From Acidobacteriota bacterium (GTDB lineage Bacteria > Acidobacteriota > Holophagae > Holophagales > Holophagaceae), in NCBI GenBank assembly GCA_016195985.1, contig JACPYP010000013.1, positions 12,116-76,115 of the forward strand: a DNA stretch of 64,000 nucleotides, written 5' to 3'. The notes beneath the pieces are model-generated. The model saw only the letters and a list, made by a program, of their open reading frames with translations. It did not search any database and was not told where the DNA came from. Shown here piece after piece: positions 13,189 to 49,000 of this stretch (positions within the stretch are counted from its first letter, which is position 1; every line of letters begins with the position of its first letter). The translations under genes were made by a program, and so were the position numbers.

Positions 13189-14925
13189 TCAATTCTGGTC
13201 TTCCAAACCCTCCAGCTCTCCATCCTGGGGGCCGCGGATCTGGGTGCTCAATCGGACTGAGGCCGTCTGGCCTTTTGGGATCTTCAAGGTCCAGGCGAGC
13301 ACTCCAGATGTCCGCTCCACCGCTCCTGGCGTGGTTTCTGGAAGCGCGGCGATTTTCACTGCATCCACTGTTGATTTGAGCATGCGGTCCTGGACCTCGA
13401 CCTCCAGGTTCTCGTTCGTGTCGTTGCTCAACTCAAGGGCCTCTTTGATCGTCCACTGGCGCTGCTTTGTGAAGGTGCCGATGGTTTCGAGTCTGTGGTC
13501 CAGCCTCCTGAAGCTGACGCGGAGGCCCTTCATGGGGCCAAAACTCAACTGGAAAGGTTGTCCTGCGGGCGGGACTTTCAGGGGGGCCTGGCCCAGGCGC
13601 TGTGTTCCCGCGAACTGCACCACGGGAGCCTCTGGAAAGAGAGGGAACCGTTCGGGAGGGGCGAACTGAGCCACCTGGTACGCCGTGGCGTCCAGCCGTG
13701 GCAGGGCGATGAGCTTCATGTGCGGTTGGAGTTCTTGGGTCAACATTTTGAAGCGATGGGGCTCACCGTCTGAGGGAATGTCTTTGGACCCCTCGAGGGA
13801 AAGCGTGGTGGCAAGGCCCGAGGCCTCTTCCAGGGTGGCGGCGGTGGCTTCCACGGCGGCCACGGGAGAAGGGGGTGGCGGTGGGGGTATCACGGCTTCG
13901 CGAGAATAGTCCGTTGCGGTGGCCGGGCCCGCGATGATCCCCCCGACCACGCCCCCCACCACTCCTCCGATGACCCCGCCTGGTACGCCGCCTGGAACCC
14001 CCCTGGGGACACCACCCAGGCTGTGATCCACCGTGGGCAGTGGCAATTGCCAGGAGATTTCCTGAGGGCCCTCAAAGCTGGGCGTGGAGAGGCTTCGGCC
14101 GGGTTTGGCATTGCTGATCTCCAGGCGCACGCCATCCCAGGATTCGCCGGTGGTCTGCACGACCGCGGCATACAGGGTGAATCCAAGGGAAGCGCGGTCT
14201 TCGGAAAGCCGGGCCTCGTAGATGGGCGTCCAACGGGCGCGCCGCTGGCGGTAGCTGACTTCCACCACCACTGGGCCGGCCCCTGGGCTGATCAGTTCCA
14301 CCGTGACGCGGCTAGGGGCGGTGCGTTGCTGGCCCTGCCTTTGCCGCAGTTCCCCGTTGAGCTGCGTTTCCTCAAGGGTCAGCTTCTCGAGATCCCGCTT
14401 GAGCCGCCGGTCTTGGAACATCAGGGCGGAAAGCCGTGTCTGGATGCTGCGAGCCAGCTCGACGATGGGCGCAGCATTGGGCAGGTTGTAGGTCATCCGC
14501 CCCGAGAGTTCCTTGTCCTGTGCGGCCATCAAACCCTTGAGGAAGGCTTGTTCCTGCCGGATGGATTCCAGTTGCGCCTCCAGGGTGTCGCGCCGGACTC
14601 GCATCGCTTCCCGGTCCGCTTCCAGCCGTTTCCATTCCGGTGTTTCCGTGACTTCGCGTGGTTCGGCGCGGACGGCCACATCTCCGAGGCTGGTGCCGGC
14701 GGGGCCTTTGGCGCTGACTTGGATATCCTCGAGGCGAAGGCCGGAGGGGAGATCCGACAACTGGAGGTAATGTGTCCCTGTGGCGGGAAGAGCGGCCTTC
14801 CCGATGCGGGTGATCCACGCCTCGTCGGGATGAAGGCGCACCCGCTGGATGGGTGCTTTCAACTGTATGGGCGCTTGGGCCGAGAGGACGGCCGTCAAGG
14901 GCAAGGTCAACAGGGCAACGCGCAT
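13189..14925 (-). CDS. DUF4140/DUF4139 (MuiA-like) secreted protein with coiled coil and a GGVPGGV low-complexity insert
   Basis: ATG at 14925 gives MRVALLTLPLTAVLSAQ. N-terminal VRLHPDEAWITR...LPSGLRLEDIQV pattern, a long coiled coil and a C-terminal beta-rich domain. Insert is GGVPRGVPGGVPGGVIGGVVGGVVGGIIAG. Confidence 0.65.
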   Translation of the reverse strand: MRVALLTLPLTAVLSAQAPIQLKAPIQRVRLHPDEAWITRIGKAALPATGTHYLQLSDLPSGLRLEDIQVSAKGPAGTSLGDVAVRAEPREVTETPEWKRLEADREAMRVRRDTLEAQLESIRQEQAFLKGLMAAQDKELSGRMTYNLPNAAPIVELARSIQTRLSALMFQDRRLKRDLEKLTLEETQLNGELRQRQGQQRTAPSRVTVELISPGAGPVVVEVSYRQRRARWTPIYEARLSEDRASLGFTLYAAVVQTTGESWDGVRLEISNAKPGRSLSTPSFEGPQEISWQLPLPTVDHSLGGVPRGVPGGVPGGVIGGVVGGVVGGIIAGPATATDYSREAVIPPPPPPSPVAAVEATAATLEEASGLATTLSLEGSKDIPSDGEPHRFKMLTQELQPHMKLIALPRLDATAYQVAQFAPPERFPLFPEAPVVQFAGTQRLGQAPLKVPPAGQPFQLSFGPMKGLRVSFRRLDHRLETIGTFTKQRQWTIKEALELSNDTNENLEVEVQDRMLKSTVDAVKIAALPETTPGAVERTSGVLAWTLKIPKGQTASVRLSTQIRGPQDGELEGLEDQN

Positions 14926-14963
14926 GGAGGCTCCGCGGGGCAATTGCAGCCAACCTCCAGGAT

Positions 14964-16397
14964 CTACCACTTCACCCGGACCCGGTAGCTCAGGGTGGCG
15001 CTGCCTTCGGCGGGCACGGTGACTTTGAACCGGGCCGTTCCGGCCGCCTCCTTGGTGTGGGGGTGGGTGCTCTGCAGCATCTCCCAGTCGCCGGGCATGG
15101 GCTCCAGCAGGTTCACGGTGACAGGTTCCTTCTTGGCGTTTTTCAGCTCCACTTCAAAGGCGGATTCGTGGACATAGCCGTACTTGCCCTGGCGGCCCAG
15201 GCTCTTGTAGTCGGTCTGCTTGCGCTTGGCGGTGACATCAAAGGCTTCGCCCAGCTTGAGGCGCACCAGCTCGTTCTTGGGGGTGTGGTCCACGTTGTCT
15301 TCGCCCACGAACTGGGCCCGGCCCTCGCTGTCGCGCTTGTAGACGCGGATGATGCCCTTGGGCAGGGGCATGCCCAGGCGGCTGGATTCCTTGTTGTCGA
15401 ATTCCACGAAGACGCCCACCTTCTGCTTCTCTCCGAGGTCGCCGTAGCTTCCGGAGTAGTAGTAGCCCTGGCCCTGCAGGAGGTATTCCTTGCGCACGGG
15501 CACCGAGCCCGCGCTCAGGAGGGCCACCTGCTTGGTCTGGTTCACGGCCAGGGTGGTGGGCCGGTCCAGGGTGTAGAGGTGGTATTCGAAGAGGCTTTCC
15601 TCGGCCATTTTGGGAGCGGGCGCGGCCTTGGCCATGGCGCCCGCGGCCATGTAGGCCACGGTTTCCGTCCGCCGGTCCCGGGCCCGGTTCACATCACCGG
15701 CGACGAGCTGCAGCGTGGCGTTGGGATAGGCGGCGCCGCTCTGGTTGGTGAGGGTCACCCAGCCGCTGAGATCGAGGGCCTTTTCATCCGGAGACAGGTT
15801 GGCCACGTAGTCCGCCCGCCAGGAGAGCCCCCCCGTGAGGTAGCTCAGTTCCAGCTGCTGGGCTTTCTCCGCGCCGCTGTTGAGGCTGATGACCAGGGTG
15901 GGCCGGGCCCGCAGGTTGCCCGGAACCTTCGGGAATACCAGGCGCCCGGGGATGCTCGTTTCGATGCGGTCGGCGAACTGCAGCACCGTGCCGTTGTTGG
16001 TGGCCAGCACCGTGGCCTCCTCGCGGATTTCTCTGGAGCCTGCGCCCTCGGCATTGGGCACGCTGCGCACCACGGTCACCTTCTCGCCCACGTACTTCTC
16101 CAGCAGTTTCTGGGGGGTGAGCAGGTCGAAGTCGAAGTTCTGTTCGGCCACCCAGAAATCCTTGGGTGCCGTGAGACTGCGCAACAGAGCCGTCTCCGGC
16201 CGGATCTGGGCCGACACCTCCTGGAAGGCCAGCCGCGCCTCGCCCTTGGGCAGCCGCACCTCCCGGGTATCCTTCACCAGGGCCAGGTTGTCGTTGTAGA
16301 TGGTCACCGCCAGGCCCTTCTGATCCTTCAGCGTGGTGGCGGATTCCTGGGCGGCCAGAAGCGAAGGCAGAACGGCGAGAAGCAGGGTGGGGCGCAT
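14964..16397 (-). CDS. DUF4139 domain secreted protein (paralogue of the downstream gene)
   Basis: ATG at 16397 preceded by GGAGG. Signal peptide MRPTLLLAVLPSLLAAQ. VTIYNDNLALVKD...LPKGEARLAFQEVS pattern. Confidence 0.65.
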   Translation of the reverse strand: MRPTLLLAVLPSLLAAQESATTLKDQKGLAVTIYNDNLALVKDTREVRLPKGEARLAFQEVSAQIRPETALLRSLTAPKDFWVAEQNFDFDLLTPQKLLEKYVGEKVTVVRSVPNAEGAGSREIREEATVLATNNGTVLQFADRIETSIPGRLVFPKVPGNLRARPTLVISLNSGAEKAQQLELSYLTGGLSWRADYVANLSPDEKALDLSGWVTLTNQSGAAYPNATLQLVAGDVNRARDRRTETVAYMAAGAMAKAAPAPKMAEESLFEYHLYTLDRPTTLAVNQTKQVALLSAGSVPVRKEYLLQGQGYYYSGSYGDLGEKQKVGVFVEFDNKESSRLGMPLPKGIIRVYKRDSEGRAQFVGEDNVDHTPKNELVRLKLGEAFDVTAKRKQTDYKSLGRQGKYGYVHESAFEVELKNAKKEPVTVNLLEPMPGDWEMLQSTHPHTKEAAGTARFKVTVPAEGSATLSYRVRVKW

Positions 16398-16617
16398 GGA
16401 ACCTCCGATGGGGTGGCGGGCAGGGCACCTGCCCGATACCTGGTGATGCCGTGAGATGGGAAATCCTTTCATGGAAAAACAGAAATCCGTACATAAGCGG
16501 AGGTTGGCAGAGGGGCGGAGGAAAGCGGAGGAAAAACCACATCCTTTCTCTCCGTTTTCCTCCGCCTCTCCCTTTCCTCTGCTTTTCTGATTTTTCGCTT
16601 GGTTTCCTGCGAAAGGG

Positions 16618-17043
16618 TCAGCTGAGCTTCCCTTCTCCCGCCAGTTCCTGAATCCTTGCCAGGGCGCTGTCCAGCTGGCCTTGCAGCAGTTTCTCGGCAC
16701 CCATCATCTGCATCATCATGGGGAGGTCGGCCTCGTCCACCAGGCGCAGGGTGCTGCCGCCGCCGGCGGCGGCGATCTCGAAGCGCAGCTCGTGATCGAA
16801 CATCTTCTTGGCGCCGGGCACCAGGCTCACCAGCTGGCCCGGGGTGCGGGTCTTGACGACGAGTTCCTGCGGCATCTTCATGCCCATGACTTCGACGGTA
16901 TAGCTGTGCTTGTCGGCGTCACCCTGGAAGTTCATGGCCGCGGGCTCGAGGAAGGCCCGGTGCTTGGACAGGTCCGAAAGGAAGGCGTACAGCGCGTCGG
17001 CGGAGACGGGCAGCGAGGCCGAGGCGGTCTTCAGGGTGGTCAT
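16618..17043 (-). CDS. SRPBCC/START-like small protein
   Basis: ATG at 17043. 141 aa with the layout of a polyketide-cyclase/SRPBCC-like fold. Tentative. Confidence 0.45.
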   Translation of the reverse strand: MTTLKTASASLPVSADALYAFLSDLSKHRAFLEPAAMNFQGDADKHSYTVEVMGMKMPQELVVKTRTPGQLVSLVPGAKKMFDHELRFEIAAAGGGSTLRLVDEADLPMMMQMMGAEKLLQGQLDSALARIQELAGEGKLS

Positions 17044-20782: not shown

Positions 20783-20816
20783 GCAAAGGCCCTGCGGATG
20801 CGGGGCCTTTGCGTTT
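20783..20816 (+). terminator. Rho-independent terminator after groEL
   Basis: GCAAAGGCCC - 10-nt loop - GGGCCTTTGC followed by GTTT. Confidence 0.6.
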
Positions 20817-20887
20817 CGGGCCCTTGGTCTTCCTGTTGCGGGGGAAGGAACTCCGGTAGCATTCCGGAAACCCCACAAGAGGCACCC

Positions 20888-21394
20888 ATGGCCAGCGGCG
20901 CGGAGTGGCTGAAGGAATTCGATCTGGAAATGTCCCGGACCAGGCGCGTCCTGACGCGGGTTCCCGAGGACCGTCTGGGCTGGCGGCCTCATCCGAAGTC
21001 CTGGACGCTGGCAGAGCTCGCCACGCACGTGGCCTGGATCCCTTCCTGGGCGATGGCCGCTCTGCGCTTCCCAGAGATGGATCTGGCCTCTTCCGACAGC
21101 CCTCCGACGCCCAAGGCCGCGACCAGCACGGCCGACCTGATGGCCCTTTTCGACGGACAGTTGGCAGTGGCCCGGGCTTCGCTGGAAGCCTCCGACGAGG
21201 CGACGTTCGCCATGCCCTGGTCCCTTCGAGCAGGAGAGCAGATCTTCTTCACCCAAACCCGCGGTGAAGTCCTGCGGACTTTCGTGATGAACCACCTCAT
21301 CCACCATCGGGGCCAACTGGAAGTGTACCTGCGCGTGAATGACGTGCCTCTGCCGGCCCTTTACGGGCCCAGTGCGGACGAGGGGGGGATATGA
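20888..21394 (+). CDS. DinB-family protein
   Basis: ATG at 20888. ELATHVAW and HLIHHRGQL histidine motifs of the DinB four-helix-bundle family. Confidence 0.7.
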   Translation: MASGAEWLKEFDLEMSRTRRVLTRVPEDRLGWRPHPKSWTLAELATHVAWIPSWAMAALRFPEMDLASSDSPPTPKAATSTADLMALFDGQLAVARASLEASDEATFAMPWSLRAGEQIFFTQTRGEVLRTFVMNHLIHHRGQLEVYLRVNDVPLPALYGPSADEGGI

Positions 21395-21510: not shown

Positions 21511-21537
21511 GCCCCGGACCTCCGGGGCTTTTGTCTT
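21511..21537 (+). terminator. Hairpin plus T-tract downstream of the DinB-family gene
   Basis: GCCCCG-GACCTC-CGGGGC followed by TTTTGTCTT. Confidence 0.5.
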
Positions 21538-21560
21538 ACTAATGACAATAAAGTCTTTTT

Positions 21561-21685
21561 TAATTACCACCTATGGGTTGACTATGATCTGAAACAGGCG
21601 GATCCTTCCCTCGAATCCTCCGGAATGTCTTCCCGGGCGGATAGACAGGACCAGGGCCCATGACCACGGAACATCTGCAAGACGG
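21561..21685 (+). repeat. Copy A of a duplicated ~125-nt promoter/leader element
   Basis: Hand alignment to 23731..23857 gives roughly 75% identity with one small indel. Blocks include TAATTAC, GGTTGACTATG, GGCGGATCCTTC, CGGG..GAT.GACAG and CCATGA.CA.GGAAC. Confidence 0.8.
21578..21606 (+). promoter_or_regulatory. Putative sigma-70-type promoter (TTGACT-17 nt-GATCCT) inside copy A
   Basis: The -35-like TTGACT and a hexamer with A2/T6 at exactly 17-nt spacing are conserved in both copies, after an AT-rich stretch. Not experimentally supported. Confidence 0.35.
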
Positions 21686-21748
21686 AGTGAATCCCGCCAT
21701 TCCTGGAACGCATTCAATCGGCTTGTCCCTCTTTGACCGGAGCGTTCG

Positions 21749-22516
21749 ATGATTCAAAAGAAAGCAATGCTGATCGACATTTCGATGTGCGTGGGCTGCA
21801 ACGCCTGCCAGGACGGCTGCAAGGCGGAGAACAAGCTGGCGCCGAGCGAGGAGAAACGCCTGTCTCCCACGGCCTACACGGCCCTGAGCGAACACAACGG
21901 CAAGTTCGTCCGCCACATGTGCCAGCACTGCGACGTGCCCACCTGCGTGTCGGTGTGTCCCGTGGCGGCCTTCACCAAGACGGCCGAGGGGCCGGTGCTT
22001 TACGACGCCAACAAGTGCATCGGCTGCCGGTACTGCATGCAGGCCTGCCCCTTCAAGGTGCCGCGTTACGAGTGGGCCAGCACCAAGCCGCGCGTGCAGA
22101 AATGCATCTTCTGCGCGCCGCGCATCACCAAGGGCCTGCAGCCTGCCTGCGCCGAAGCCTGCCCCACCGGCGCCACGAAGTTCGGCGACCGGGATGAACT
22201 CATTCTGGAAGCCAGCAACCGCATGCAGGCCGAGCCCGGCAAGTATGTCGCCAAGATCTACGGGCAGAAGGACGTGGGGGGGACTTCCATCCTCTTCATC
22301 AGCCCCGTGCCCTTCGAGGAGCTGGGTTTCGACACGCGGCTCGGGGACACGCCCATGCCCCTGCTGACCCTGAGCGCCATGTCGAAGATCCCCAACGTGG
22401 TCAGCATGGGCGGAGTCATGCTCGCGGGCATCTGGTGGATCACCAACCGCCGCGCCGAGGTCCAGCACTACGAAGCTTCCCTGAAACACGACGCCACTTC
22501 CAAGACGCAGGAATAG
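21749..22516 (+). CDS. 4Fe-4S ferredoxin-type subunit, NrfC/HybA/DmsB family, with a C-terminal TM anchor
   Basis: Four Cys clusters (CVGCNACQDGC; CQHCDVPTCVSVCP; CIGCRYCMQACP; CIFC...CAEACP). C-terminal helix VVSMGGVMLAGIWWI. No twin-arginine signal visible. Confidence 0.85.
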   Translation: MIQKKAMLIDISMCVGCNACQDGCKAENKLAPSEEKRLSPTAYTALSEHNGKFVRHMCQHCDVPTCVSVCPVAAFTKTAEGPVLYDANKCIGCRYCMQACPFKVPRYEWASTKPRVQKCIFCAPRITKGLQPACAEACPTGATKFGDRDELILEASNRMQAEPGKYVAKIYGQKDVGGTSILFISPVPFEELGFDTRLGDTPMPLLTLSAMSKIPNVVSMGGVMLAGIWWITNRRAEVQHYEASLKHDATSKTQE

Positions 22517-22518
22517 CC

Positions 22519-23649
22519 ATGGCCTCCTACAAATCCTCTCGCATCACCGTGTGGAGCGTCATCGCCGCCACCTTGATCACCACGGGCGTCGCGGCAGCCA
22601 TCGCCCGGTTCACCCTGGGCCTCGGGGCCACCACCAACCTCAGCGACACCTTCCCCTGGGGCCTCTGGATCGGCTTCGATTTCCTGGGCATCGGCCTGGC
22701 CGCCGCAGGGTTCACCATCGTGGCGGCAGTGCATCTGTTCCACGCCACGGAGTATGAGCCCATCGTGCGGCCCGCCATCCTCACGGCCTTCATCGGCTAC
22801 CTGCTGGTGGTCCTGGTGCTGGTCATCGATCTGGGGCGCCCCGAGCACTTCTGGCATCCGCTGGTGATGTGGAATCCCCACTCGGTGATGTTCGAGATCA
22901 CCTGGTGCGTGATCCTCTACACCACCGTGCTGTCCATGGAGTTCGCGCCCATCGTGCTTGAGAAATTCAACATGCACGCCCCCATCAAGTGGATCCACAG
23001 CGTGTCGCTGCCCCTCATGGTGATGGGAGTCCTTCTGTCCACGCTGCACCAGTCCTCCTTCGGCTCGCTCTACCTGATCGTGCCCAACCGGCTGCATCCG
23101 CTCTGGTACACCCCGCTGCTCCCGGTGCTGTTCTTCGTGTCCTGCATCGCTTCCGGCATCTCCATGGTGCTCATCGAATCCCTGATCTTCTCCCGCAATG
23201 GACGCCGGATCCTGCCCACCGCGCTGCGGGCCAAGCTGGCCAAGATCACCGCCATCGCCCTGGCCATGTACCTCGTGATCCGCGTCCAGGACATGGTTTC
23301 ACGCGGCGTGTTCCACCACGCGAAGCACCTCAGCTACCACAGCATCGCCTTCTGGGCCGAGCTCCTCATCGGATTCGCCGTTCCGCTCGCCCTGCTGCTC
23401 ATCACCAGGGTGCGCACCTCCCGCCGCGGGCTTTACATCGCTTCCCTGATGGTGCTGGCGGGCTTCGCCCTGAACCGCATGAACACGGCCATCACGGGCC
23501 TGGAAGACTGGCCTGCGCGGACCTACTTCCCCTCTCTGTTGGAAGTGCTCATCACCCTGGGCATCGCCGCCATCGGCTTCACGGCCTTCTCGTTCATCGC
23601 CCGCCGCCTCCCGATTTTCGCCCCCGAGCCCCTTCCGCCCCAGGCCTGA
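22519..23649 (+). CDS. NrfD/HybB-family polytopic membrane subunit (quinone-interacting)
   Basis: ATG 2 nt after the upstream stop. About 9-10 predicted TM helices. N-terminal pattern TFPWGLWIGFDFLGIGLAAAG is typical of NrfD/PsrC/HybB. Confidence 0.8.
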   Translation: MASYKSSRITVWSVIAATLITTGVAAAIARFTLGLGATTNLSDTFPWGLWIGFDFLGIGLAAAGFTIVAAVHLFHATEYEPIVRPAILTAFIGYLLVVLVLVIDLGRPEHFWHPLVMWNPHSVMFEITWCVILYTTVLSMEFAPIVLEKFNMHAPIKWIHSVSLPLMVMGVLLSTLHQSSFGSLYLIVPNRLHPLWYTPLLPVLFFVSCIASGISMVLIESLIFSRNGRRILPTALRAKLAKITAIALAMYLVIRVQDMVSRGVFHHAKHLSYHSIAFWAELLIGFAVPLALLLITRVRTSRRGLYIASLMVLAGFALNRMNTAITGLEDWPARTYFPSLLEVLITLGIAAIGFTAFSFIARRLPIFAPEPLPPQA

Positions 23650-23730
23650 ACTGTGGCGTCTCGACCATGCCTTTTCGCAGCCACGTTCGCTTTGATGGGC
23701 CACGGATTGCCGGTTCGTCAAAGCTTGAGC

Positions 23731-23857
23731 TAATTACTACCAAAAGGTTGACTATGCTCCAGCGAGGGCGGATCCTTCACATGAGTCCACCCGGAACTTC
23801 CTTTCGGGCTGGATTGACAGAGCGGGAATCCATGATCATGGAACTTCCTACCGCCCA
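23731..23857 (+). repeat. Copy B of the duplicated ~125-nt promoter/leader element
   Basis: See copy A. Lies 67 nt upstream of the sensor kinase ATG. Confidence 0.8.
23748..23776 (+). promoter_or_regulatory. Putative sigma-70-type promoter (TTGACT-17 nt-GATCCT) inside copy B
   Basis: Same hexamers and spacing as in copy A. Confidence 0.35.
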
Positions 23858-23923
23858 TTTCAACAGCGCCACCAGTGGCACCCGCTGGCCGTTCGCCCAC
23901 GACTCGGAAAAGGGAGCCTGACC

Positions 23924-25450
23924 ATGCGGACCCGCATCGGCACTCGTCTCATCCTTGGCGCCGGCCTGACGACGGCGGCCGTCATCGGCGGAATGGCATT
24001 CACGGTCATCCGTTCGCACACAGCGCAGCTGCTGGCGGAGCGGACCCGAAGCGCCGACCAGCTGAGCGAGACCATCAAGAGCTCCACCCATTTCGACATG
24101 CTTGAGAACCGGCGGGACAACCTCCACCGCCAGATCCGCTCCGTGGGCGGCCTGCAGGGGCAGGGGATCCGCAAGGTGCGGGTGTTCAACAAGGAAGGCC
24201 GGATCATGTTTTCCTCGTCGGCCGAAGAGATCGGCACCAGCCTGGATACCCGGGGCGAGGCCTGCTATGCCTGCCATCAGGAAGGCCGTCCTTTGGAGCG
24301 CCTGGAGATCAACGCGAGGGCCCGAACCTTCAGGACGCCGGATGGTTCCCGGGTGCTGGGGCTTATCGCCCCCATCCCCAACGAGCCTTCTTGTTCCACC
24401 GCCGATTGCCATGCCCACAGCGCCAAGCAAAGCCTCCTGGGTGTTCTGGATGTCAACGTTTCCCTGGACGAAGTGGACCGGGAGATCTCCCGAAGCCGGG
24501 CGGTCATCATCTCGTCGGCGGTCCTGGCCGTTCTGGCGGGCAGTCTCATGCTTTGGTGGCTCAACCGAAGGCTGGTCGTCCGGCCGGTGGCGGCGCTGGT
24601 GGAAGGGACGCGGCGCGTCAGCGAGGGCGACCTTTCGGCGACCATTCCTGTGAACGGGCGGCATGAGCTCAGCCAGTTGGCCCGGGCCTTCAACGACATG
24701 ACCGGCAATCTGGCGGACACGCACCGCCAGCTGGCCCAGGCCGACAAGCTTGCCTCCGTGGGCCGCCTGGCCGCGGGCATCGCCCACGAGATCAACAACC
24801 CGCTGACGGGCGTTCTCAGCTACGCCTCGCTCCTGCGCAAACGCATGGCGGAAGATGTGTCCGCCTGCGAGGACCTGGACGTGATCGTGCGGGAGACGGT
24901 GCGCTGCCGGGGCATCATCCGCGGCCTGCTGGATTTCGCCCGTCCCGCGGCACCCGCCCGCAAGCCCATGGACCTGAACGACGTGGTCCGCCGTTCGGTG
25001 TCCGTGGTGATGACGCAGCTGTCCCTCCATCACGTGGATCTGTCCCTGGGACTGGCGACGGACCTGCCTCTGGTCCAGGCGGATGCGAACCAGATCGAGC
25101 AGGTGGTTGTAAACCTCCTGCTGAATGCTGCCGATGCCATTGGAGAGGCGGGCGGGAACATCCGGGCCACCACCCGTCCGGGCCTCGGGGGCAGCATCGA
25201 GCTCCTCCTTCAAGACAGCGGACACGGCATTCCCGCTGAAGACCTTCCCCGCATCTTTGAACCGTTCTTCACCACCAAGGGCAACCATGGCACCGGTTTG
25301 GGGCTGGCGGTGAGCTGGGGCATCGTGGAGGCCCACGGCGGCGCCCTGGAGGTCCAGAGCGAACTGGGCCAGGGCACCTGCTTCACCCTCCGGTTGCCCA
25401 CCAATCCCGATTCCGAAGGCAGCAAGCCGATTCTTCCCACTCTCACCTAG
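23924..25450 (+). CDS. Sensor histidine kinase (2 TM, periplasmic domain with c-haem binding motifs, HAMP, HisKA, HATPase)
   Basis: TM1 LILGAGLTTAAVIGGMAFTVI. Periplasmic CYACH (nt 24263-24277) and CSTADCH (nt 24392-24412). TM2, HAMP, H-box AAGIAHEINNPLTG, N-box LLLNAADA, G-boxes DSGHGIP and GTGLGLAV. Confidence 0.9.
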   Translation: MRTRIGTRLILGAGLTTAAVIGGMAFTVIRSHTAQLLAERTRSADQLSETIKSSTHFDMLENRRDNLHRQIRSVGGLQGQGIRKVRVFNKEGRIMFSSSAEEIGTSLDTRGEACYACHQEGRPLERLEINARARTFRTPDGSRVLGLIAPIPNEPSCSTADCHAHSAKQSLLGVLDVNVSLDEVDREISRSRAVIISSAVLAVLAGSLMLWWLNRRLVVRPVAALVEGTRRVSEGDLSATIPVNGRHELSQLARAFNDMTGNLADTHRQLAQADKLASVGRLAAGIAHEINNPLTGVLSYASLLRKRMAEDVSACEDLDVIVRETVRCRGIIRGLLDFARPAAPARKPMDLNDVVRRSVSVVMTQLSLHHVDLSLGLATDLPLVQADANQIEQVVVNLLLNAADAIGEAGGNIRATTRPGLGGSIELLLQDSGHGIPAEDLPRIFEPFFTTKGNHGTGLGLAVSWGIVEAHGGALEVQSELGQGTCFTLRLPTNPDSEGSKPILPTLT

Positions 25451-25459
25451 GAGGTCGCC

Positions 25460-26581
25460 ATGACCGCCGTATTGATCCTCTTCATGTTTGCGGCCTTCGT
25501 GGGCATCGATTACCTGATCCGCACGAACCTGCGCCGAATGCAGGAAAAACGGGCCCGGCAAGCCCGTGAAGCCGTGTTGAACACCGCCATTCGCCTGGAT
25601 TTCACCCACGAGGCCAAGAGCCTCAAGCGGGTCGAGGTGCCCAATCCCAAGGCCCGCATCCTCGCCGTGGACGACGAGGGCGTGGTGCTGGATTCCTTCC
25701 GGCGCATCCTCGTGCTGGAAGGCTTCAGCGTGGACACCGTGGAGCACGGACCCGAAGCCCTGGGGCTGGTTCAGCGCAACGACTACGACTTCGTGTTCAC
25801 GGACCTGAAGATGCCGGACATGGACGGCGTGGAAGTGGTGAAGGCCGTCAAGCACCTGCGCCCTGACGTGGACGTGGTCGTCATCACGGGCTACGGCAGC
25901 ATCGAGACCGCTGTCCAGACGCTGCAGCACGGCGCCTGCGAGTACGTGCAGAAGCCCTTCACCGCCGACGAGCTGGGCGAGTTCGCGCGCAAGCTGGTCA
26001 TCAAGCGCGAAGCCCGCATCCAGGCCGCCAGCCAGCCCAATGTCCGGGTGGTTTCGCCTGAAATGGCGGAGGTGATGCCCGCCTCCGAATTCTGCGTGCC
26101 TGGCGGCGCCTTCATTTCCCCGGGCCACGCCTGGGTTCGCATTGAGCCCGAAGGCCAGGTGCGCATCGGCATCGATGACTTCATCCGGAAGGCCCTGGGC
26201 TCCGTGAAGGAAATCAGCCTGCCCGAGCGCGGCAAGACCGTGAAGCAGGGCGAGACGCTCTTCACCCTCAAGAGCGCGGCGGGAACCGTCCATGTGGCCG
26301 CGCCGGTCTCAGGCCGGGTCGAGCACGACAACGCAGGCCTGAAATCCGACCCGGGAGAGCTCATCCACAGCCCCTACGACCGAGGCTGGGTCTGCCTGCT
26401 GACCCCCACGGACCTCGCGACCGAACTGCCCGGCCTGAAGATCGGCAAGCCGGTCATCGAGTGGTACCAGGAGGAGATCACCCGGCTGCGGGCGAACAAG
26501 GGCCCCGAAGGCACGGGCACCCTGGATTGGGCGGCCTTCGAACAGCAGTTCCTGGGCGGTCACGCTTCCGCGCAGGCCTGA
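25460..26581 (+). CDS. Membrane-anchored response regulator: TM helix, REC domain, glycine-cleavage-H-like C-terminal domain
   Basis: N-terminal helix MTAVLILFMFAAFVGIDYLI. REC (ILAVDDEG, FTDLKMPDMDG with D115, VITGYG, VQKPF). C-terminal HAWVRIEPEGQVRIGIDDFIRKALGSV...APVSGRVEHDN...SPYDRGW matches the GcvH fold pattern. Confidence 0.8.
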   Translation: MTAVLILFMFAAFVGIDYLIRTNLRRMQEKRARQAREAVLNTAIRLDFTHEAKSLKRVEVPNPKARILAVDDEGVVLDSFRRILVLEGFSVDTVEHGPEALGLVQRNDYDFVFTDLKMPDMDGVEVVKAVKHLRPDVDVVVITGYGSIETAVQTLQHGACEYVQKPFTADELGEFARKLVIKREARIQAASQPNVRVVSPEMAEVMPASEFCVPGGAFISPGHAWVRIEPEGQVRIGIDDFIRKALGSVKEISLPERGKTVKQGETLFTLKSAAGTVHVAAPVSGRVEHDNAGLKSDPGELIHSPYDRGWVCLLTPTDLATELPGLKIGKPVIEWYQEEITRLRANKGPEGTGTLDWAAFEQQFLGGHASAQA

Positions 26582-26592
26582 TCCGGAATGAA

Positions 26593-26629
26593 GCGAAGGC
26601 CACGGAGGCTCAGCTTCCGTGGCCTTCGC
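26593..26629 (+). terminator. Hairpin after the response regulator, overlapping the lipA 3' end
   Basis: GCGAAGGCCACGGA - loop - TCCGTGGCCTTCGC (14-bp stem). No strong U-tract. Confidence 0.45.
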
Positions 26630-27566
26630 CTGCATGGTAGCTGGAACGCACCAGGGGAGCGGATTCCACCCGCTGGAAACCCATCTCCCGCCCCTTCTGC
26701 TTGTAGAAGTCGAACTCGGCGGGCTCCACGAAGCGGTGCAGCGGCAGGTGCAGCTCCGACGGGGGGAGATACTGTCCGATGGTGGCGATGTCCACCCGGT
26801 TTGTCCGCCAATCGGCCATCAGCTCCAGCACCTGGTCGGAGGTTTCGCCCAGGCCCACCATGATGCCGCTCTTCACGCGCATGGCCGGGGCATGCTGGTC
26901 CCGCCATTCCGCCGTGCGGCGCAGGAGCGCCAGGCTCTGGGCGTAGTCCGCATCGGGCCGCACGCGCTTGTAGAGGTGGGGGACGGTCTCCACATTGTGG
27001 TTCAGCACGTCCGGTCCGGCTTCCAGGACCGCGGCCAGGGCCGCTTCGTTGCCCCGGAAATCGGGGATGAGCACTTCGATGCCGCAGTGGGGCGACAGCG
27101 TGCGGATCCACCGGATGGTGGCGGCGAAATGGGCGGAGCCGCCATCGGGCAGGTCGTCGCGGTTGACGGAGGTGACCACGGCGAACTTGAGGCCCAGGCG
27201 CGCCACGGCCTCGGCCACGCGCTGGGGCTCCCCGGGGTCCAACTCGCCCGGCTTGCCTTTGCCCACGTTGCAGAAGCCGCAGTGGCGCGTGCAGATATCG
27301 CCCATGAGCATGAAGGTGGCCGTGCGGTGGATGCCCCAGCACTCATGCAGGTTGGGGCAGCGGGCCTCTTCGCAGACCGTCACCAGGCGCTGCTCTCGGA
27401 TGAGGCCCTCCACCTCGGCCACCACCTCCGGGGCCGGGACGCGGATCTTCAGCCATTCGGGACGGGGGCCGGGAAGGACGGGAGGGCGAGCCATAGCCTT
27501 CCATTGTGAGGGATGAATGCGGCTGTATGGACGGGCTGGGCTCCATTCTTTTTTATCGGTGTTCAT
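26610..27566 (-). CDS. lipA: Lipoyl synthase
   Basis: CEEARCPNLHECW and radical-SAM CTRHCGFCNV motifs. Start is uncertain (ATG 27566 or ATG 27494). Confidence 0.92.
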   Translation of the reverse strand: MNTDKKEWSPARPYSRIHPSQWKAMARPPVLPGPRPEWLKIRVPAPEVVAEVEGLIREQRLVTVCEEARCPNLHECWGIHRTATFMLMGDICTRHCGFCNVGKGKPGELDPGEPQRVAEAVARLGLKFAVVTSVNRDDLPDGGSAHFAATIRWIRTLSPHCGIEVLIPDFRGNEAALAAVLEAGPDVLNHNVETVPHLYKRVRPDADYAQSLALLRRTAEWRDQHAPAMRVKSGIMVGLGETSDQVLELMADWRTNRVDIATIGQYLPPSELHLPLHRFVEPAEFDFYKQKGREMGFQRVESAPLVRSSYHAGEGHGS

Positions 27567-44283: not shown

Positions 44284-45435
44284 ATGATGCTCCAATCCTT
44301 CCGGCGGGTTCGCCCCCTTCAACACGGATTCTCGCTGATCGAGATGCTGGTGGCAGTCATGTTCATCGGCATTCTTTCTGCGGGCATGATGCGCATATAT
44401 TCTGCGAACCTGTCAGGCTTCCAACGCGTCAACGATACAATCGCCAGCCAGCGGCGCGGCCGTTGGGCGCTCTCGTCCCTTCAAGATGATGTGGCGTCCG
44501 TGGGCTTTTTCGCATTTGTTCCCTTCAACCAACCCGCTGGTTATTCCGTGGTTTCGGGGAGTCAGGAACCTTTCATGATTCTCCCGTCGCCGACTGCGGT
44601 TTCGGTGACAGGTCCCGATCCCACCAATCCCACGGTAATGCTCACAGCGAACTTAAGTCCTAATCCCGACGAGCTGCAGTTCGTGGGGGACATTCCATTG
44701 CCTATTCAGGCGACGGTCCTATCGACCTCGGGGACCGCCCTTGGTCTTAACGTAAGCAGTGGCAATATGGCAGATATCGAAGCAGGGGACATTGTGGCGA
44801 TCCTGGACCCCACCTTCGAGCAGGTCAAGGTTGCGACCAAGCCTTCCAGCACCACCCTTAGCATTTCCGCCACAGGGGCGAGCGAACAGGCTAGTCGACA
44901 GGTGGCGGGTTATGCCCTGTCACCCACACTCTCTGCTCACGCAGTGGGCGTTCCTGTGGTCGTTTTCCGCCCCAACGTGGTGACCCGCTACTCCATCCAA
45001 GCACGTGCTTGGGACCCATCGAATGCAGGCACCATCCCGTGTCTGGTTCGCCAGCAGACGCCGTACCCGGATGGAGGTGCCTTGATCGATTGGACGGGCG
45101 TTCAGGCGGATGTGATCGCAGAGAACATCGATGGTTTCCGGGTGGACATCAGCTTCGACGGTGGAACCACTTGGTTGCGGCAGGCCGCTGGAAGTTGGGA
45201 CGCCATCGTCTCAAGCATGCAAGGGCTCAGCCCCGGCGGGGTCGTTTTGAATCCAAGGGATGCCTCGAATCCGCTCTGGTACCGCAATTTCCCCTGCTTG
45301 ATTCGTATGGACATAACAGCGCGCTCTGCAGCCCCCAAGGCCGCCAATTCGGATATTACCGGCCAGGCGGCCTATGTGCGTAGAACGCAGACGCTGATGG
45401 TGACCCCTCGCAATTTCGGTTTGCCCCTCTTCTGA
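44284..45435 (+). CDS. pilW: Type IV minor pilin PilW-like
   Basis: QHGFSLIEMLVAVMFIGILSAGM prepilin motif. Size and position after the pilV-like gene fit. Confidence 0.65.
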   Translation: MMLQSFRRVRPLQHGFSLIEMLVAVMFIGILSAGMMRIYSANLSGFQRVNDTIASQRRGRWALSSLQDDVASVGFFAFVPFNQPAGYSVVSGSQEPFMILPSPTAVSVTGPDPTNPTVMLTANLSPNPDELQFVGDIPLPIQATVLSTSGTALGLNVSSGNMADIEAGDIVAILDPTFEQVKVATKPSSTTLSISATGASEQASRQVAGYALSPTLSAHAVGVPVVVFRPNVVTRYSIQARAWDPSNAGTIPCLVRQQTPYPDGGALIDWTGVQADVIAENIDGFRVDISFDGGTTWLRQAAGSWDAIVSSMQGLSPGGVVLNPRDASNPLWYRNFPCLIRMDITARSAAPKAANSDITGQAAYVRRTQTLMVTPRNFGLPLF

Positions 45436-45445
45436 GGAGATCCTT

Positions 45446-46051
45446 GTGACTAAACGTCGTAATTCCACTCGTATTCGGCAGCAGGGCGGTCTGACTATTA
45501 TCCTCGCTCTGGTGCTTGTGGGGGTTATGGGAGCCGCCACCTTCAGCTTAAGTCGCAACGCGATTCGGGAGTTGTCGACTGCTGGCGCCATCATTCAGGG
45601 CGGTAAAGCTGCTGCTGCGGCCGACGCAGGGCTGGATTGGGTGATCATTTGGGGTCAGGGGGGTGTGAAGTTTTCTGATTTCACTGCTGCGGCTCCCCAC
45701 GCCGAACAATCAGCCTTGATAAGCAAAATGAAGGATAGCATCTCGCCCACTTTGGCTTATCCGATCTTTACTCTTTCAGGCAATGGAGTTGACGCCATGT
45801 CCATGAACGTTGGCTCTGCTACCACGAACCAGAATTTTGATATCGAGTTCCGATTCTTAGGCAATCTGCCCTCTGGCCGCCAGAGCGGAGGCAGTTCCGA
45901 TAACGCTGGTGCCTCGGGTGGAACGAAAGGCGGTGCGGGAGGGGTCGGCGACTATGTCTGGCGTATCCTCGCGACGGGACGTGCCACACCCCAGAACGGC
46001 CAAACCTACCAGGCCCAACGCGAACTCATCAGCACTCTGCCTCCCTTCTAA
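45446..46051 (+). CDS. pilX: PilX-like minor pilin
   Basis: GTG start after GAGGAGA. QQGGLTIILALVLVGVMGAATFSL is a PilX N-terminal-type segment. Confidence 0.6.
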   Translation: MTKRRNSTRIRQQGGLTIILALVLVGVMGAATFSLSRNAIRELSTAGAIIQGGKAAAAADAGLDWVIIWGQGGVKFSDFTAAAPHAEQSALISKMKDSISPTLAYPIFTLSGNGVDAMSMNVGSATTNQNFDIEFRFLGNLPSGRQSGGSSDNAGASGGTKGGAGGVGDYVWRILATGRATPQNGQTYQAQRELISTLPPF

Positions 46052-46079
46052 TGAACCCGATCCATCACCGGGAGAACCC

Positions 46080-49000
46080 ATGAACGGCTCATTCATGCAT
46101 CGGCTCAAGGCTTTCTGCTTCACGGCGCTCGCTGCAGCTTGTCTCTTTGGGCAGGTGGACAAGAACCTCGTCATGAGCACCGACCTGCTCGATGTTTACT
46201 CCAGTGGAAAGATCAAGCCGGAGGTGCTCACCATCTTCGATTTCTCCGGCTCCATGGAGAATACGTTTTGGCACAAAGACTACTGGACGGATCAAAACAG
46301 CGACTGGGGTTATGCCATACGCTATAACGGCAGTGCGTTGAAATTTGTCAAGCCGTCTGGTTCGTCTGCAGCAGCTCTTTCGAATAACCTTGCCAACGCC
46401 ACTGGGTTTCTGGTTGATCCCGCAGGGAACGCCATCAGTGGGACGCCGACGGCGGCCCTCGTCAAGCAGGCCAGTCACGCCCGTATGACCGCCACCCTAA
46501 CCTCTGGCGGCAAAACCTACACTCGGACTGTCGATATCCCACTTCCGTGGACCATCCTCCAGGTCCCGGCGAGTCTGCCGGTGTCTGCTGGGACCCCGCC
46601 TGTTCCCGACTACATCATGGACCCAGCAAGTGCAACTGCGACTCTCCCACCCACCACCAAAGTCGAGTTTGACAAGGTGTATTCTCTTAGCAACACCAAC
46701 ATCTACAACACGAGCAATGGCCAGATCGGTCTGTTTGCCTACAACCCCGACTATCTGAACTGGATCTTCTGGGGAACCGTCGCCAAGGCGGCGGATGGAA
46801 ACAGCTTCAATGCCGCGACCGTCACAGGTTATCTGGATGACCGCAAACAATCCGCCCCCAGCAACACTCTGACGAGTCCCGTCGCCGGTCTGGGAGGTTA
46901 TTTCCCTGGGGGTGGGGGATATGTTATTCCTGGCGCTTACGATCCCAGTTCAGGTTCCTCATCGACGCCAAGCACCACTGTGTGGAATACAGGTAAGACT
47001 TTTGCCAACGGCCTTCCTGTAGGGACCCGTTGCCACTTTCTGAAGCGAGCCGTGCTCTCCACCTGGTTCGGGACCCAGGGGGGGGCGCAGACCCAGAAGT
47101 CCGTGCTCTGGGCTTACCGGTTCCTCGATGCCAGTGGCACTGAACAGAGCATTTCTCCAAGAACGAACATCAACACCGACAACGAAATTGGAGGCAGCAG
47201 CCAGCGGGCACTGACCCAGCTCAAGAGTGTGACGAGCGGCATCCATGCTTCCGTGTCGGCCATTCAGACGAAGTCGCCCGCCAACGGAACACCCCTGACC
47301 TACGCTTTGGCAAATGCCTACGCACAGTTGGTGATCAACGATTCGGGATCGAGCGTCTTCGATTCGGGCAACGCAAAGGATGGCAAGTCACCTTGCCGAA
47401 CGTCCTTCGTCATTCTCTTCACCGACGGCCTTGGCAACGATGACAACGGCGGGAGCGTGGTGGGCACGGCGGAGGTCGCAACCAATGCGTTGACGGCCGT
47501 AAATACGGAAGCTGACATTCGGGCCATCTCCTTTTCCAAGTTGAATCCAACAACTTCATCGCTTTCCAGCTCGAACTTCAACATTTGGAGCTTGGCGGCC
47601 GTGGCTGCCCATGCCACCGATGCCTCGGCATCCGCCCAATTGACGAGCGGCATCGCATCCGTCAGCTCCTTCGCGCCATTCCGGATCATGTCCCGGGGAG
47701 CCAGTGCGAGTAAGCCAAGGAAGATCACTACCTTTACTGTGGGGTTGTCTTTGGCGGGTTCCAATACGTCAAGCTTCACCGTGGGCGGCAAGGGACCGCT
47801 GCTGCGCACCGCATTGTATGGCGATCCGGAGGTTACCAAATTTGATTTGGCCCACTCCGTGGCCAATGACAAGGGCAGCCAGATCAACAAGACCTTGTAT
47901 CCCGACGCCATCGCCACCGGATTTTATGATGCAACCGACCCCCAGGGGCTCACTAACAGCCTGATTTCACTGTTCTCCCGCATCACTCGAGCTGATACGG
48001 GTATTACGGCACCGGCCGCGCCTCTGGTGGGACTGAACCTGGGCAATCGCGCCTACCTGGGACGTTTCGCCACGGGGATTACCGACAAAGACAACCCCAG
48101 TTCCGTTTGGAGCGGTGATCTGCTCATGGCCGGTCTTGGCATTCAGGGCGACGGATCCGTTGGCTTGAAAGATAAAGATGGGAACTTTCAACAGGATATC
48201 AACGAGAACAATGCGGTGGCTTCCGCTGCCAAAGTTCTGAAGGTCACGGGATGGGCCAATGGAAAGCGCAATGTTTACACGATGATTCCTGGCACCAGCA
48301 TTCCGGCAGGCGGATTAGACCTCACCCTGCCTGCCCAGGCTTTCAGCGACCAGAATGCTGCCCTCCGCGATCCAAAGGTGATGGGGACCTCCAGCGCGAC
48401 CGAGGCCATCAGCCTCATTCGCTTCATCCGTGGGGCAGATCTGGCTGCGCAAACGGACCCGGTGAACCCGACAACCAAAACCGGCACACGGCTCGACATC
48501 ATGGGCGATGTGATCAACAGTTCGCCCGCCGCAGTTGAGTACGATGCAGGCCTGCTGTCCTCGGTCGGTTTTACTGGAACCTATACTGGCGACACGGACC
48601 TGCGGTACCAAGTGATATTCGTGGGTGACAACCAGGGGCATTTCCACGCCTTCGCTGAGAAGAGCGGCATCACTGGTGGCGGATTGCTGCATGGTGAACT
48701 GGTGGAGCTATGGAGCTTCGTGCCACCCGAATTGCTGAACAACCCCAGTGTCAGCACCACGGTCTCCAAGTTGAGCCGCCTGCAATCCAAGGGCAATGCC
48801 CATATCTATACCGTGGACGGTTCCCCTTTTATCTACTTCGATGACTCGGCGACGAAGAACCGCAAGGTCGATAGCGCAGATAAGGTCCGGGTGATTTTCG
48901 GCATGCGCAAGGGCGGGCGCAGTTACTACGCCTTGGACGTGGCGGATCCCGTCAAGCCGAAGCTGGTGTGGATGCTCGACCCCAACACCTCAACGGACCC

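Follow-up and report, generated by a model that had tools for sequence, protein, structure and literature searches.

What does a two-component response regulator act upon when it carries no DNA-binding domain, is anchored in the membrane and ends in a domain with the fold of the H-protein, GcvH? To our knowledge, the outputs of two-component systems are almost always transcription, a second messenger or motility. The question is raised by a gene cluster at 21749–26581 of a stretch of 64,000 nucleotides (hereafter the window, whose positions are used for all coordinates) from a Geothrix-like Acidobacteria metagenome-assembled genome, in which such a regulator and a putative haem-binding sensor kinase follow two genes for an iron-sulfur protein and a membrane protein that resemble NrfC and NrfD. 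Our analysis shows that the four genes are one conserved unit, apparently undescribed, which probably functions in redox signaling:

21749–22516, plus strand: NrfC/HybA/HmcB-like 4Fe-4S protein
22519–23649, plus strand: NrfD/HybB/HmcC-like membrane protein
23924–25450, plus strand: sensor histidine kinase, 508 aa
25460–26581, plus strand: membrane-tethered response regulator with a receiver and a GcvH-like domain (REC-GcvH)

The public-record names of the products are all generic ('response regulator', 'HAMP domain-containing protein', '4Fe-4S dicluster domain-containing protein', 'Ni/Fe-hydrogenase cytochrome b subunit'), none of the four proteins is named by any curated NCBIfam model, and full-text literature searches revealed no account either of regulators of the REC-GcvH kind or of any two-component pair with a link to NrfC and NrfD (NrfCD).

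Conservation of the four-gene neighborhood

An initial annotation, made from the letters of the window alone, had described the NrfC/NrfD pair and the kinase/regulator pair as adjacent and co-oriented, and had named the conservation of the neighborhood in other genomes as a check of their connection. All the genes are present at or near where it had placed them, and the check came out in favor of the connection. A scan of one genome per species yielded 80 loci (labeled L001 and so forth) with a regulator identity of 56–88%, among which 59 have a sufficient flank, i.e. 4 kb or more upstream and 3.5 kb or more downstream, and all four genes are found in 58 of these 59. The order NrfC-NrfD-kinase-regulator is seen in 66 loci, while in three others (L062, L064, L065) the kinase and the regulator precede NrfC and NrfD, and in L060 the pair is inverted (NrfD-NrfC) and lies downstream of the kinase and the regulator; the linkage thus survives four rearranged loci. 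The taxa on the record labels include Holophagaceae, Candidatus Binatia, Eisenbacteria, Vicinamibacteria and Solibacteraceae, and Geothrix fermentans DSM 14018 (L016) is among the carriers. Clustering of all flanking open reading frames (ORFs) in the 40 most distant loci did not reveal any fifth conserved family. The functional link between the kinase/regulator pair and NrfCD is supported, though only by this synteny.

Domain composition of the regulator and the kinase

The regulator comprises an N-terminal transmembrane (TM) helix (aa 2–20), a receiver (Response_reg, PF00072, 97.7 bits) and a C-terminal domain that matches GCV_H above the threshold (PF01597, 69.3 bits), and neither the domain search nor the AlphaFold2 model revealed a DNA-binding domain. 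This composition bears out the earlier description of a membrane-tethered regulator with no transcriptional output. The receiver is intact, with D71, D72, D115, T143 and K165 conserved in at least 98% of 82 orthologs, so that the protein, judged by these residues, should be a genuine phospho-acceptor. The AlphaFold2 model, built from 61 sequences (predicted local distance difference test, pLDDT, 87), exhibits a complete GcvH fold at about aa 211–316, and Foldseek matched the C-terminal domain to the H-protein of T. thermophilus (1onl) with a TM-score of 0.93 and a root-mean-square deviation of 1.3 Å over 127 residues, at ~30% identity.

In spite of the complete fold, the domain differs from GcvH in several respects. 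It scores below the cutoff of the GcvH equivalog model TIGR00527 (64.7 bits versus 115.85), it comes as a fusion with a receiver and a TM helix, and it lacks the gcvTHP context, as there are no gcv genes (gcvT, gcvP) in the neighborhood. In gapless alignments to the pea, Thermus and Mycobacterium H-proteins, the position of the lipoyl lysine (E-S-V-K, at the tip of the hairpin) is taken by Ala274, in a column that is variable among the orthologs (A, T, S, E, K or L). K271, three residues before the canonical site, is kept in 59 of the 82 orthologs, while the other 23 have R, H, Q, V or E in its place, and more distant members of the family have no lysine in the hairpin. It follows that the C-terminal domain, although it has the fold of an H-protein, cannot serve as a conserved substrate of lipoylation. 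Whatever it does, it represents a case of the GcvH fold in use without lipoate.

Could the domain nevertheless be lipoylated, given that the next gene, convergent to the regulator, encodes lipoyl synthase? The features concerned are:

26593–26629: 17-bp hairpin between the regulator stop codon (26579–26581) and the last codons of lipA
26610–27566, minus strand: lipA, canonical lipoyl synthase (TIGR00510), convergent and judged to lie outside the module

Lipoate serves as the basis of a relay in the LbpA proteins of the sHdr systems, and by the same token the GcvH-like domain might be lipoylated by the neighboring LipA and shuttle electrons or sulfur between NrfC and another partner. The complete H-protein fold would suit this role, as would K271 in those orthologs that keep it near the canonical site, and the two genes have a 3' hairpin in common. 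This hairpin was correctly recognized in the initial annotation as spanning both 3' ends: its 17-bp stem, closed by a TCA loop that is the complement of the lipA stop codon, folds with -42.3 kcal/mol (z = -3.65), a stability reached by none of 200 shuffles, and it is likely a bidirectional terminator, though it has no T-run. LipA itself is canonical (TIGR00510, 365.7 bits versus a cutoff of 310.25) and not of the LipS1/LipS2 type that accompanies LbpA systems (28.6 bits versus 270 with the LipS2 model). Its gene is no more than 300 nt away from the regulator gene in 29 of the 59 loci, but all of these belong to the close Geothrix clade, and there are none beyond ~75% regulator identity; groEL, scpA and uvrC are also syntenic in this clade, and lipA is a housekeeping gene beside scpA and uvrC. 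Because the adjacency is limited to the Geothrix clade, lipA is a bystander outside the module, and the hint that had been seen in its proximity to a GcvH-like domain has to be abandoned. With an alanine in a variable column at the lipoyl-lysine site, K271 replaced in more than a quarter of the orthologs and no hairpin lysine in distant members, we regard the relay as extremely improbable; lipoylation coupled to lipA was rejected on the basis of both the lysine position and the synteny.

The kinase contains a first TM helix, a periplasmic domain of 164 aa, a second TM helix, and HAMP (57.9 bits), HisKA (57.3 bits) and HATPase_c (87.7 bits) domains, all above threshold. The haem motifs that had been noted in the periplasmic part are confirmed as two c-type motifs, C114-x2-C117-H118 and C157-x4-C162-H163 (followed by H165), which are kept in at least 90–98% of 78 orthologs and invariant in 17 diverse sequences reaching down to 42% identity. 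The profile of the sensor domain matches the haem-c periplasmic sensor GSU0935 from Geobacter (3B42 in the PDB, E = 5.8e-4), and in this alignment the Cx4CH motif (C157..C162-H163) falls on the CxxCH motif of GSU0935. Among the 17 family members, Mcp40H-20_sensor is found below threshold in 16 and sCache_3_2 matches weakly in 12; PF21563 scores 23 bits versus a threshold of 27 and is sub-threshold in 16 of the 17, and PF11845 is found in one. The single-sequence AlphaFold2 model (pLDDT 37) was unusable.

The family of GSU0582 and GSU0935 has recently been reclassified as one of haem-c Cache domains and binds nitric oxide (NO), and many of its members are fused to a HAMP-kinase output (PMC12889525). 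The window kinase resembles this family (sCache_haem; 3B47 and 3B42 in the PDB; Tll0287/DUF3365) in the predicted periplasmic single-Cache-like domain, in the equivalent place of a putative haem motif and in the HAMP-kinase output. It differs in that this motif is Cx4CH, whereas the family exhibits a strictly conserved CxxCH in a helical insertion, in the presence of a second, canonical CxxCH 40 residues upstream, and in its Pfam scores, which are below threshold. These features suggest that the domain is a diverged sensor of the Cache type, probably with two haems, which responds to redox state or to a haem ligand.

Kinase orthologs outside the Geothrix clade are longer (~630 aa) and carry a Cys-rich, zinc-ribbon-like insertion of ~120 residues within HATPase_c, with the pattern ACPxC...CxxCGAP...WCxRxGC (L052:8081–9973, L072:7686–9989, L081:7836–10001, L059, L064 and L086:5306–7171), which is absent from the window kinase.

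The NrfC/NrfD pair and the possible target of the regulator

The NrfC-like protein (Fer4_11, 85 bits) exhibits four [4Fe-4S] motifs of the CxxCxxCxxxC(P) type, with all 16 cysteines kept in at least 98% of 70 orthologs. The NrfD-like protein (PF03916, 104.1 bits versus a gathering threshold of 25.8) is predicted to have 10 TM helices with the N-terminus inside (K/R count 14 inside versus 5 outside) and to provide a putative quinone site. Among curated families the best scores were obtained for the Hmc proteins of Desulfovibrio and for HybA/HybB of E. coli hydrogenase-2, in all cases below the equivalog cutoffs (NrfC-like: HmcB 249.3 bits versus 420, HybA 188.2 versus 263; NrfD-like: HybB 292.1 versus 450, HmcC 287.4 versus 550). 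By analogy, the pair may work like HmcB/HmcC, HybA/HybB or CbcT/CbcU, while being an equivalog of none of them.

CbcT and CbcU belong, together with CbcS, to Cbc4 of Geobacter, a module of the cytochrome c-NrfC-NrfD type (10.1101/2025.04.14.648717), and three-protein modules of a tail-anchored ferredoxin, a HybB-like protein and a c-type cytochrome have been described (PMC10924467). The window pair shares with these the protein with four [4Fe-4S] clusters and a C-terminal TM tail, and the NrfD/HybB-like subunit. Compared with Cbc4, it has no cytochrome c subunit, its NrfC has no twin-arginine translocation (Tat) signal, and it is firmly linked to a two-component pair, a kind of regulator not described for Cbc4 (10.1101/2025.04.14.648717). 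The Cbc4-like or three-protein form itself occurs beside the same kinase/regulator family in L086, L087 and L094. The hmc operon is followed by the response-regulator gene rrf1 (PMC10924467), and the window resembles the Desulfovibrio system with its downstream regulators rrf1 and rrf2 in having a regulator gene downstream; unlike Hmc and Hyb, it has no HmcA, HmcD, HmcE or HmcF, no hydrogenase nearby and no Tat signal. Rrf1 might itself have a GcvH-like domain, of which PMC3333781 makes no mention.

The membrane side of NrfC is a cell-biological puzzle, since this HybA-like protein has no signal and yet its sequence features are those of a periplasmic protein. The first cysteine follows after 13 residues, an in-frame stop codon lies 15 nt upstream, and none of 24 inspected orthologs of either type (see below) has a twin-arginine signal. 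A signal hidden in an upstream extension, or gained by joining the short upstream ORF, was rejected because of that stop codon and of the identical layout in L001 and 22 other loci. Tat (RR) signals are present on NrfC of the distant relatives L086, L087 and L092, and clustering of flanking ORFs did not reveal any conserved Tat-bearing carrier or partner gene near NrfC. The hydrophobic C-terminal segment (aa 215–232), which was not called by a 19-residue hydropathy scan at a threshold of 1.5, aligns with the tail anchors of the Tat-bearing relatives and is assigned as a TM tail. Combination of this tail and the WITxRRxxV motif that follows it with the N-in topology and the conserved periplasmic loops of NrfD, and with the Tat signals found on NrfC in those distant relatives that encode a multihaem cytochrome as well, would place the Fe-S domain in the periplasm. 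An inverted topology of NrfD, which would account for a cytoplasmic NrfC, found no support in the topology analysis.

The juxtamembrane motif of the NrfC tail (~226–238) is near-invariant as G-x-x-W-I-T-x-R-R-x-x-V in both types of the protein and much weaker in the Tat-bearing relatives, and it is the sole strongly conserved feature of the NrfCD pair on the cytoplasmic side. In the TM helix of the regulator (residues 1–27; 25460–25540), F13, D17 and R21 are conserved in at least 98% of the orthologs; the D/E-x3-R pattern is kept in relatives of ~30–50% identity, with Asn in place of the acidic residue in a group with degenerate receivers (pseudo-receivers). A salt bridge between D17 of the regulator and the RR motif of NrfC was considered, and is weakened as a candidate because L091 retains D-x3-R even though NrfC is missing from its surroundings.

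What, then, is the likely relation between the two pairs? The best-supported reading, which we put forward tentatively as somewhat short of probable, is a kinase-driven, post-translational action of the H-protein-like domain on the quinone module. The haems would let the kinase sense either the redox state of the periplasm or a ligand such as NO, and the kinase would phosphorylate D115 of the regulator; the tethered H-protein-like domain would act at the inner membrane, by direct protein contact, on the quinone module of its own gene cluster. Its counterparts in relatives would act on the neighboring quinol module, be it of the cytochrome c-NrfCD, CbcL-like or NapC-like kind. The outcome would be a gate on the passage of electrons between menaquinone pool and periplasm, with the character of a fast feedback valve and not of a transcriptional switch. 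On this view, the region would encode a self-contained, horizontally widespread, four-protein membrane redox-signaling module.

The deeper relatives of the regulator bear on this proposal. Membrane-tethered REC-GcvH proteins of ~30–50% identity adjoin cytochrome c-NrfC-NrfD, CbcL-like or NapC-like quinol modules. They are found beside Tat-NrfC and NrfD in L087 (with a 5-haem cytochrome) and L092, and L094 combines a cytochrome, Tat-NrfC, NrfD and a REC-GcvH protein with the same di-haem kinase. In L086, a CbcL-like multihaem/cytochrome b protein, Tat-NrfC, NrfD and a 13-haem cytochrome are followed by the di-haem kinase, a soluble REC-GcvH, a TM-REC-GcvH and further cytochromes, while in L091 the kinase and two REC-GcvH genes precede two CbcL-like multihaem/cytochrome b proteins, with no NrfCD. 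TM-GcvH proteins with a degenerate receiver lie after NrfD and a 12-haem cytochrome in L085 (Chloroflexota), and in L088 only 5 nt after a 35-haem, TM-anchored, NapC-like cytochrome. The association with electron-transfer modules is thus tracking the regulator more closely than the kinase, even where the receiver has lost its catalytic residues.

Or perhaps NrfCD is not the target of the signaling pair, and is its input? The pair would then serve as a wire, in which NrfD takes electrons from menaquinol and a periplasmic NrfC passes them on, through its four Fe-S clusters, to the di-haem sensor domain of the kinase. The kinase would report the redox state of the quinone pool to a regulator with its target elsewhere. 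The di-haem domain is indeed the only periplasmic redox partner encoded with NrfCD in the four-gene form, and it stands in place of the cytochrome c subunit of the related cytochrome c-NrfC-NrfD modules (10.1101/2025.04.14.648717; PMC10924467). The canonical N-in topology of NrfD, the high conservation of its periplasmic loops, and the WITxRR sequence after the TM tail of NrfC would all fit such a wire. It would, however, require the export of an NrfC that has neither a Tat signal nor a conserved carrier nearby; moreover, the di-haem kinase occurs also without NrfCD (L081, L089–L091) and, in L086 and L094, beside NrfCD complexes already equipped with cytochromes, and the pseudo-receiver TM-GcvH proteins of L085 and L088 remain next to electron-transfer modules although no kinase is observed there. 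Because the association follows the regulator and persists with a degenerate receiver, a regulator that acts on the quinol module, or is part of it, is favored over a mere input to the kinase, and we consider the input role of NrfCD unlikely, albeit a serious alternative.

A further explanation would dispense with the functional connection altogether: the two-component pair would act on unlinked targets by means of the H-protein-like domain, NrfCD would partner a Tat-exported catalytic subunit encoded elsewhere (a hydrogenase, a formate dehydrogenase or a molybdoenzyme), and the linkage would reflect shared conditions of expression. Signal-less, tail-anchored proteins of the HybA/FdnH type are normally exported by hitch-hiking on their catalytic subunit (PMC10924467), the best family scores of NrfCD are precisely those of HybA/HybB and HmcB/HmcC, the NrfCD cassette has been swapped with no change in the kinase and the regulator, and REC-GcvH regulators do occur in unrelated contexts. 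No catalytic subunit is found, however, within 10 kb in ~60 loci, the linkage has held across phyla and rearrangements with no other conserved neighbor, and the regulator is tethered to the membrane, all of which makes mere co-location rather improbable.

Several observations weigh against action of the regulator on the quinone module. The pair exists in two types, of which type A is found in the window, L001, L052–L054, L060, L062, L064 and L065, and type B is the common form. Near-identical type A genes are present in Geothrix sp. PMB-07. The window NrfCD is ~46–52% identical to the type B proteins, whereas the window kinase and regulator are 83–89% identical to their type B-linked counterparts; such an exchange of NrfCD types (~50% identical) with no matching change in the kinase and the regulator argues against an extensive specific interface. 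The most conserved parts of NrfD are its periplasmic loops, and the loops on the cytoplasmic side are poorly conserved. In the absence of a Tat signal even the membrane side of NrfC is uncertain, and both haem attachment and phosphotransfer are deduced from motifs. In L081, the sole exception among the 59 loci, the kinase and the regulator are flanked by no redox gene of any kind. Soluble REC-GcvH proteins (~260 aa; WOR-3, Eisenbacteria) follow Cache-type kinases with no NrfCD nearby, so the architecture alone does not imply the module. The expectation, implicit in the initial annotation, that the genes would be syntenic wherever REC-GcvH regulators occur therefore holds for the membrane-tethered forms, which lie beside NrfCD or quinol modules, and fails for the soluble ones.

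In two WOR-3-type contigs (L082:6132–10028 and L084:5008–9928) the soluble REC-GcvH gene, located after its kinase, is followed by the same trio of genes for FAA_hydrolase, 2-phosphosulfolactate phosphatase and a UbiE-type methyltransferase. A representative search also revealed a natural fusion (P0155) of Response_reg and GCV_H with an HdrC-type 4Fe-4S dicluster domain (Fer4_8/Fer4_17), a hint at a working relation between the H-protein-like output and Fe-S proteins of electron transfer.

A wider generalization is that the lipoate-free TM-REC-GcvH proteins form an unrecognized class of post-translational regulators or subunits of modules for quinol-to-periplasm export (NrfCD, CbcL-like, NapC-like), driven by a di-haem Cache kinase that senses the reduction of the periplasm; we regard this as doubtful on present evidence. 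Redox-sensing two-component systems such as ArcB/ArcA and RegB/RegA act transcriptionally, with quinones sensed by the kinase itself, while CheY, RssB and PorX are response regulators with protein-binding outputs. The window system shares with the former the coupling of a two-component system to respiration or redox state, and with the latter the combination of a receiver with an output that does not bind DNA; literature searches revealed no described regulator that unites an H-protein fold, a membrane tether and a co-inherited quinone module. Such a combination points to phosphorylation as a direct means of controlling the flow of electrons in respiration. In bacteria that respire iron or electrodes, electrons are routed via different inner-membrane quinol oxidases according to the acceptor potential (ImcH, CbcL and CbcBA in Geobacter). 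These three have been linked to potential-dependent pathways (10.1101/2025.04.14.648717). A phosphorylation-controlled 'valve', if the proposal is true, could explain how metal- and electrode-respiring bacteria switch or throttle quinol oxidases by acceptor potential without new transcription, and the module offers a concrete, genetically testable candidate for the setting of electron routing.

Leaders and genomic surroundings

The initial annotation had drawn attention to paralogous promoter/leader elements with matching upstream ORFs (uORFs) in front of both gene pairs. The features concerned, with the upstream boundary of the module, are:

21511–21528, plus strand: terminator-like hairpin, GCCCCGGACCTCCGGGGC followed by TTTT, at which the DinB unit ends and the module has its 5' limit
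21561–~21735, plus strand: leader copy 1, the probable native operon promoter and the 5' untranslated region (5'UTR), with remains of the ribosome site and start that belonged to the ancestral nrfC
Elements of copy 1, plus strand, from an alignment of 23 leaders: A/T tract TTTTTAATT; -35 TTGACT at 21578–21583; 17-nt spacer; -10 GATCCT at 21601–21606
21660–21752, plus strand: uORF 1, 30 codons, starting at the relic of the type B nrfC start, its TGA overlapping the nrfC ATG (ATGA)
23731–~23905, plus strand: leader copy 2, with -35 at 23748–23753, -10 at 23771–23776, 5'UTR and relic start
23832–23921, plus strand: uORF 2, 29 codons, starting at the second relic start codon and ending 2 nt before the kinase ATG

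Both copies are indeed present, aligning at ~70% identity over ~175 nt, and a degenerate 33-nt leader pattern occurs exactly twice in the window versus never in 100 shuffles; copy 2 has no upstream A/T tract and no palindrome. The pairing is, however, not a conserved design, as the motif GGTTGACTAT is found in a single copy upstream of nrfC in all Geothrix-clade loci (30+) and in two copies only in the window. Related Geothrix genomes have the four genes in one operon, as in L001, where the gap between NrfD and the kinase is 26 nt. The alignment of the 23 leaders reveals, at fixed positions, a variable palindrome, the A/T tract, TTGACT, the 17-nt spacer, (G/C)AT(G/C)CT, a short GC hairpin, AGGAG and ATGGGCATGGGCCTTCTC, the last being the start of type B nrfC (MGMGLLFD...), to whose start codon region the uORF starts of the window, CCCATGACCACGGAACATC and TCCATGATCATGGAACTTC, align. 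From this conservation we infer a sigma-70-type promoter, which a simple consensus scan had failed to call; a sigma-54 promoter, considered by eye, was rejected because the spacing and the GC of the -12 element do not fit.

We further infer that the pair of leaders arose in this lineage alone, when the promoter of the operon was duplicated along with the 5'UTR and the start region. The type A NrfCD cassette would have replaced an ancestral type B, leaving the old promoter, 5'UTR and start in front, and a second copy of the leader would in this lineage have been placed ahead of the kinase gene. The uORFs would be remnants of the former start of nrfC and would today couple translation into both nrfC and the kinase gene; for uORF 1 the ATGA overlap with nrfC implies translational coupling.

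Alternatively, the paired leaders could be a dedicated cis-regulatory RNA (riboswitch or attenuator) with functional leader peptides that co-regulates both gene pairs. The similarity of the two copies, the equivalent positions of their short ORFs and the recurrence of the short GC hairpin in the 5'UTR of relatives are what such an element would show. Rfam searches (E <= 1), on the other hand, gave no match in the leaders, their three hits, ascribed to chance, all falling on the 3' hairpin, and RNAalifold on 20 leaders yielded -2.1 kcal/mol with almost no covariation (compensatory change in 3 of 9 pairs), on which grounds a riboswitch or structured leader was rejected. The uORF peptide is not conserved either (30 codons in the window versus 54 in L001, with unrelated sequence), the uORF starts are homologous to the start of the replaced gene, and the second copy is confined to this lineage. 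A cis-regulatory RNA is thus very improbable, and duplication of the leader is the preferred explanation.

Two palindromes were observed in the leaders. One, at 21541–21560 and at the equivalent position in L002–L041, is fixed in its place upstream of the A/T tract and the -35 element and varies in sequence by lineage (TGACA-N4-TGTCA in L002, CCCACC-AATA-GGTGGG in L038, L039 and L041, and weak in the window); it could be an operator of changed specificity or a DNA or RNA hairpin. The other is the type B nrfC start itself, CCCATGGGCATGGG, a 14-nt palindrome centered on the start codons ~95 nt after the -35 element (L002–L041; e.g. L002:6540–6555), which the second relic of the window keeps as TCCATGATCATGGA (23830–23843).

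The gene order in the window is groES, groEL, a DinB-family gene, the NrfC-like, NrfD-like, kinase and regulator genes, convergent lipA, scpA and, further on, uvrC. Only the window and L018 have the DinB-family gene (20798–21394, plus strand, in the window) between groEL and the module; at this position other Geothrix loci have an intergenic gap of 350–900 nt. Two neighboring DUF4139 paralogs, one also with DUF4140, lie at 13189–16700 (minus strand), and the DUF4139 family also adjoins groES in Geothrix sp. 21YS21S-4 (L001). Two ORFs of 383 aa (44284–45435, plus strand) and 1484 aa (45909–50363, plus strand) have no Pfam match at 1e-5; the segment that contains them (44284–50363) has a G+C content of 0.57–0.58, versus 0.64–0.70 elsewhere, and may be a foreign island.

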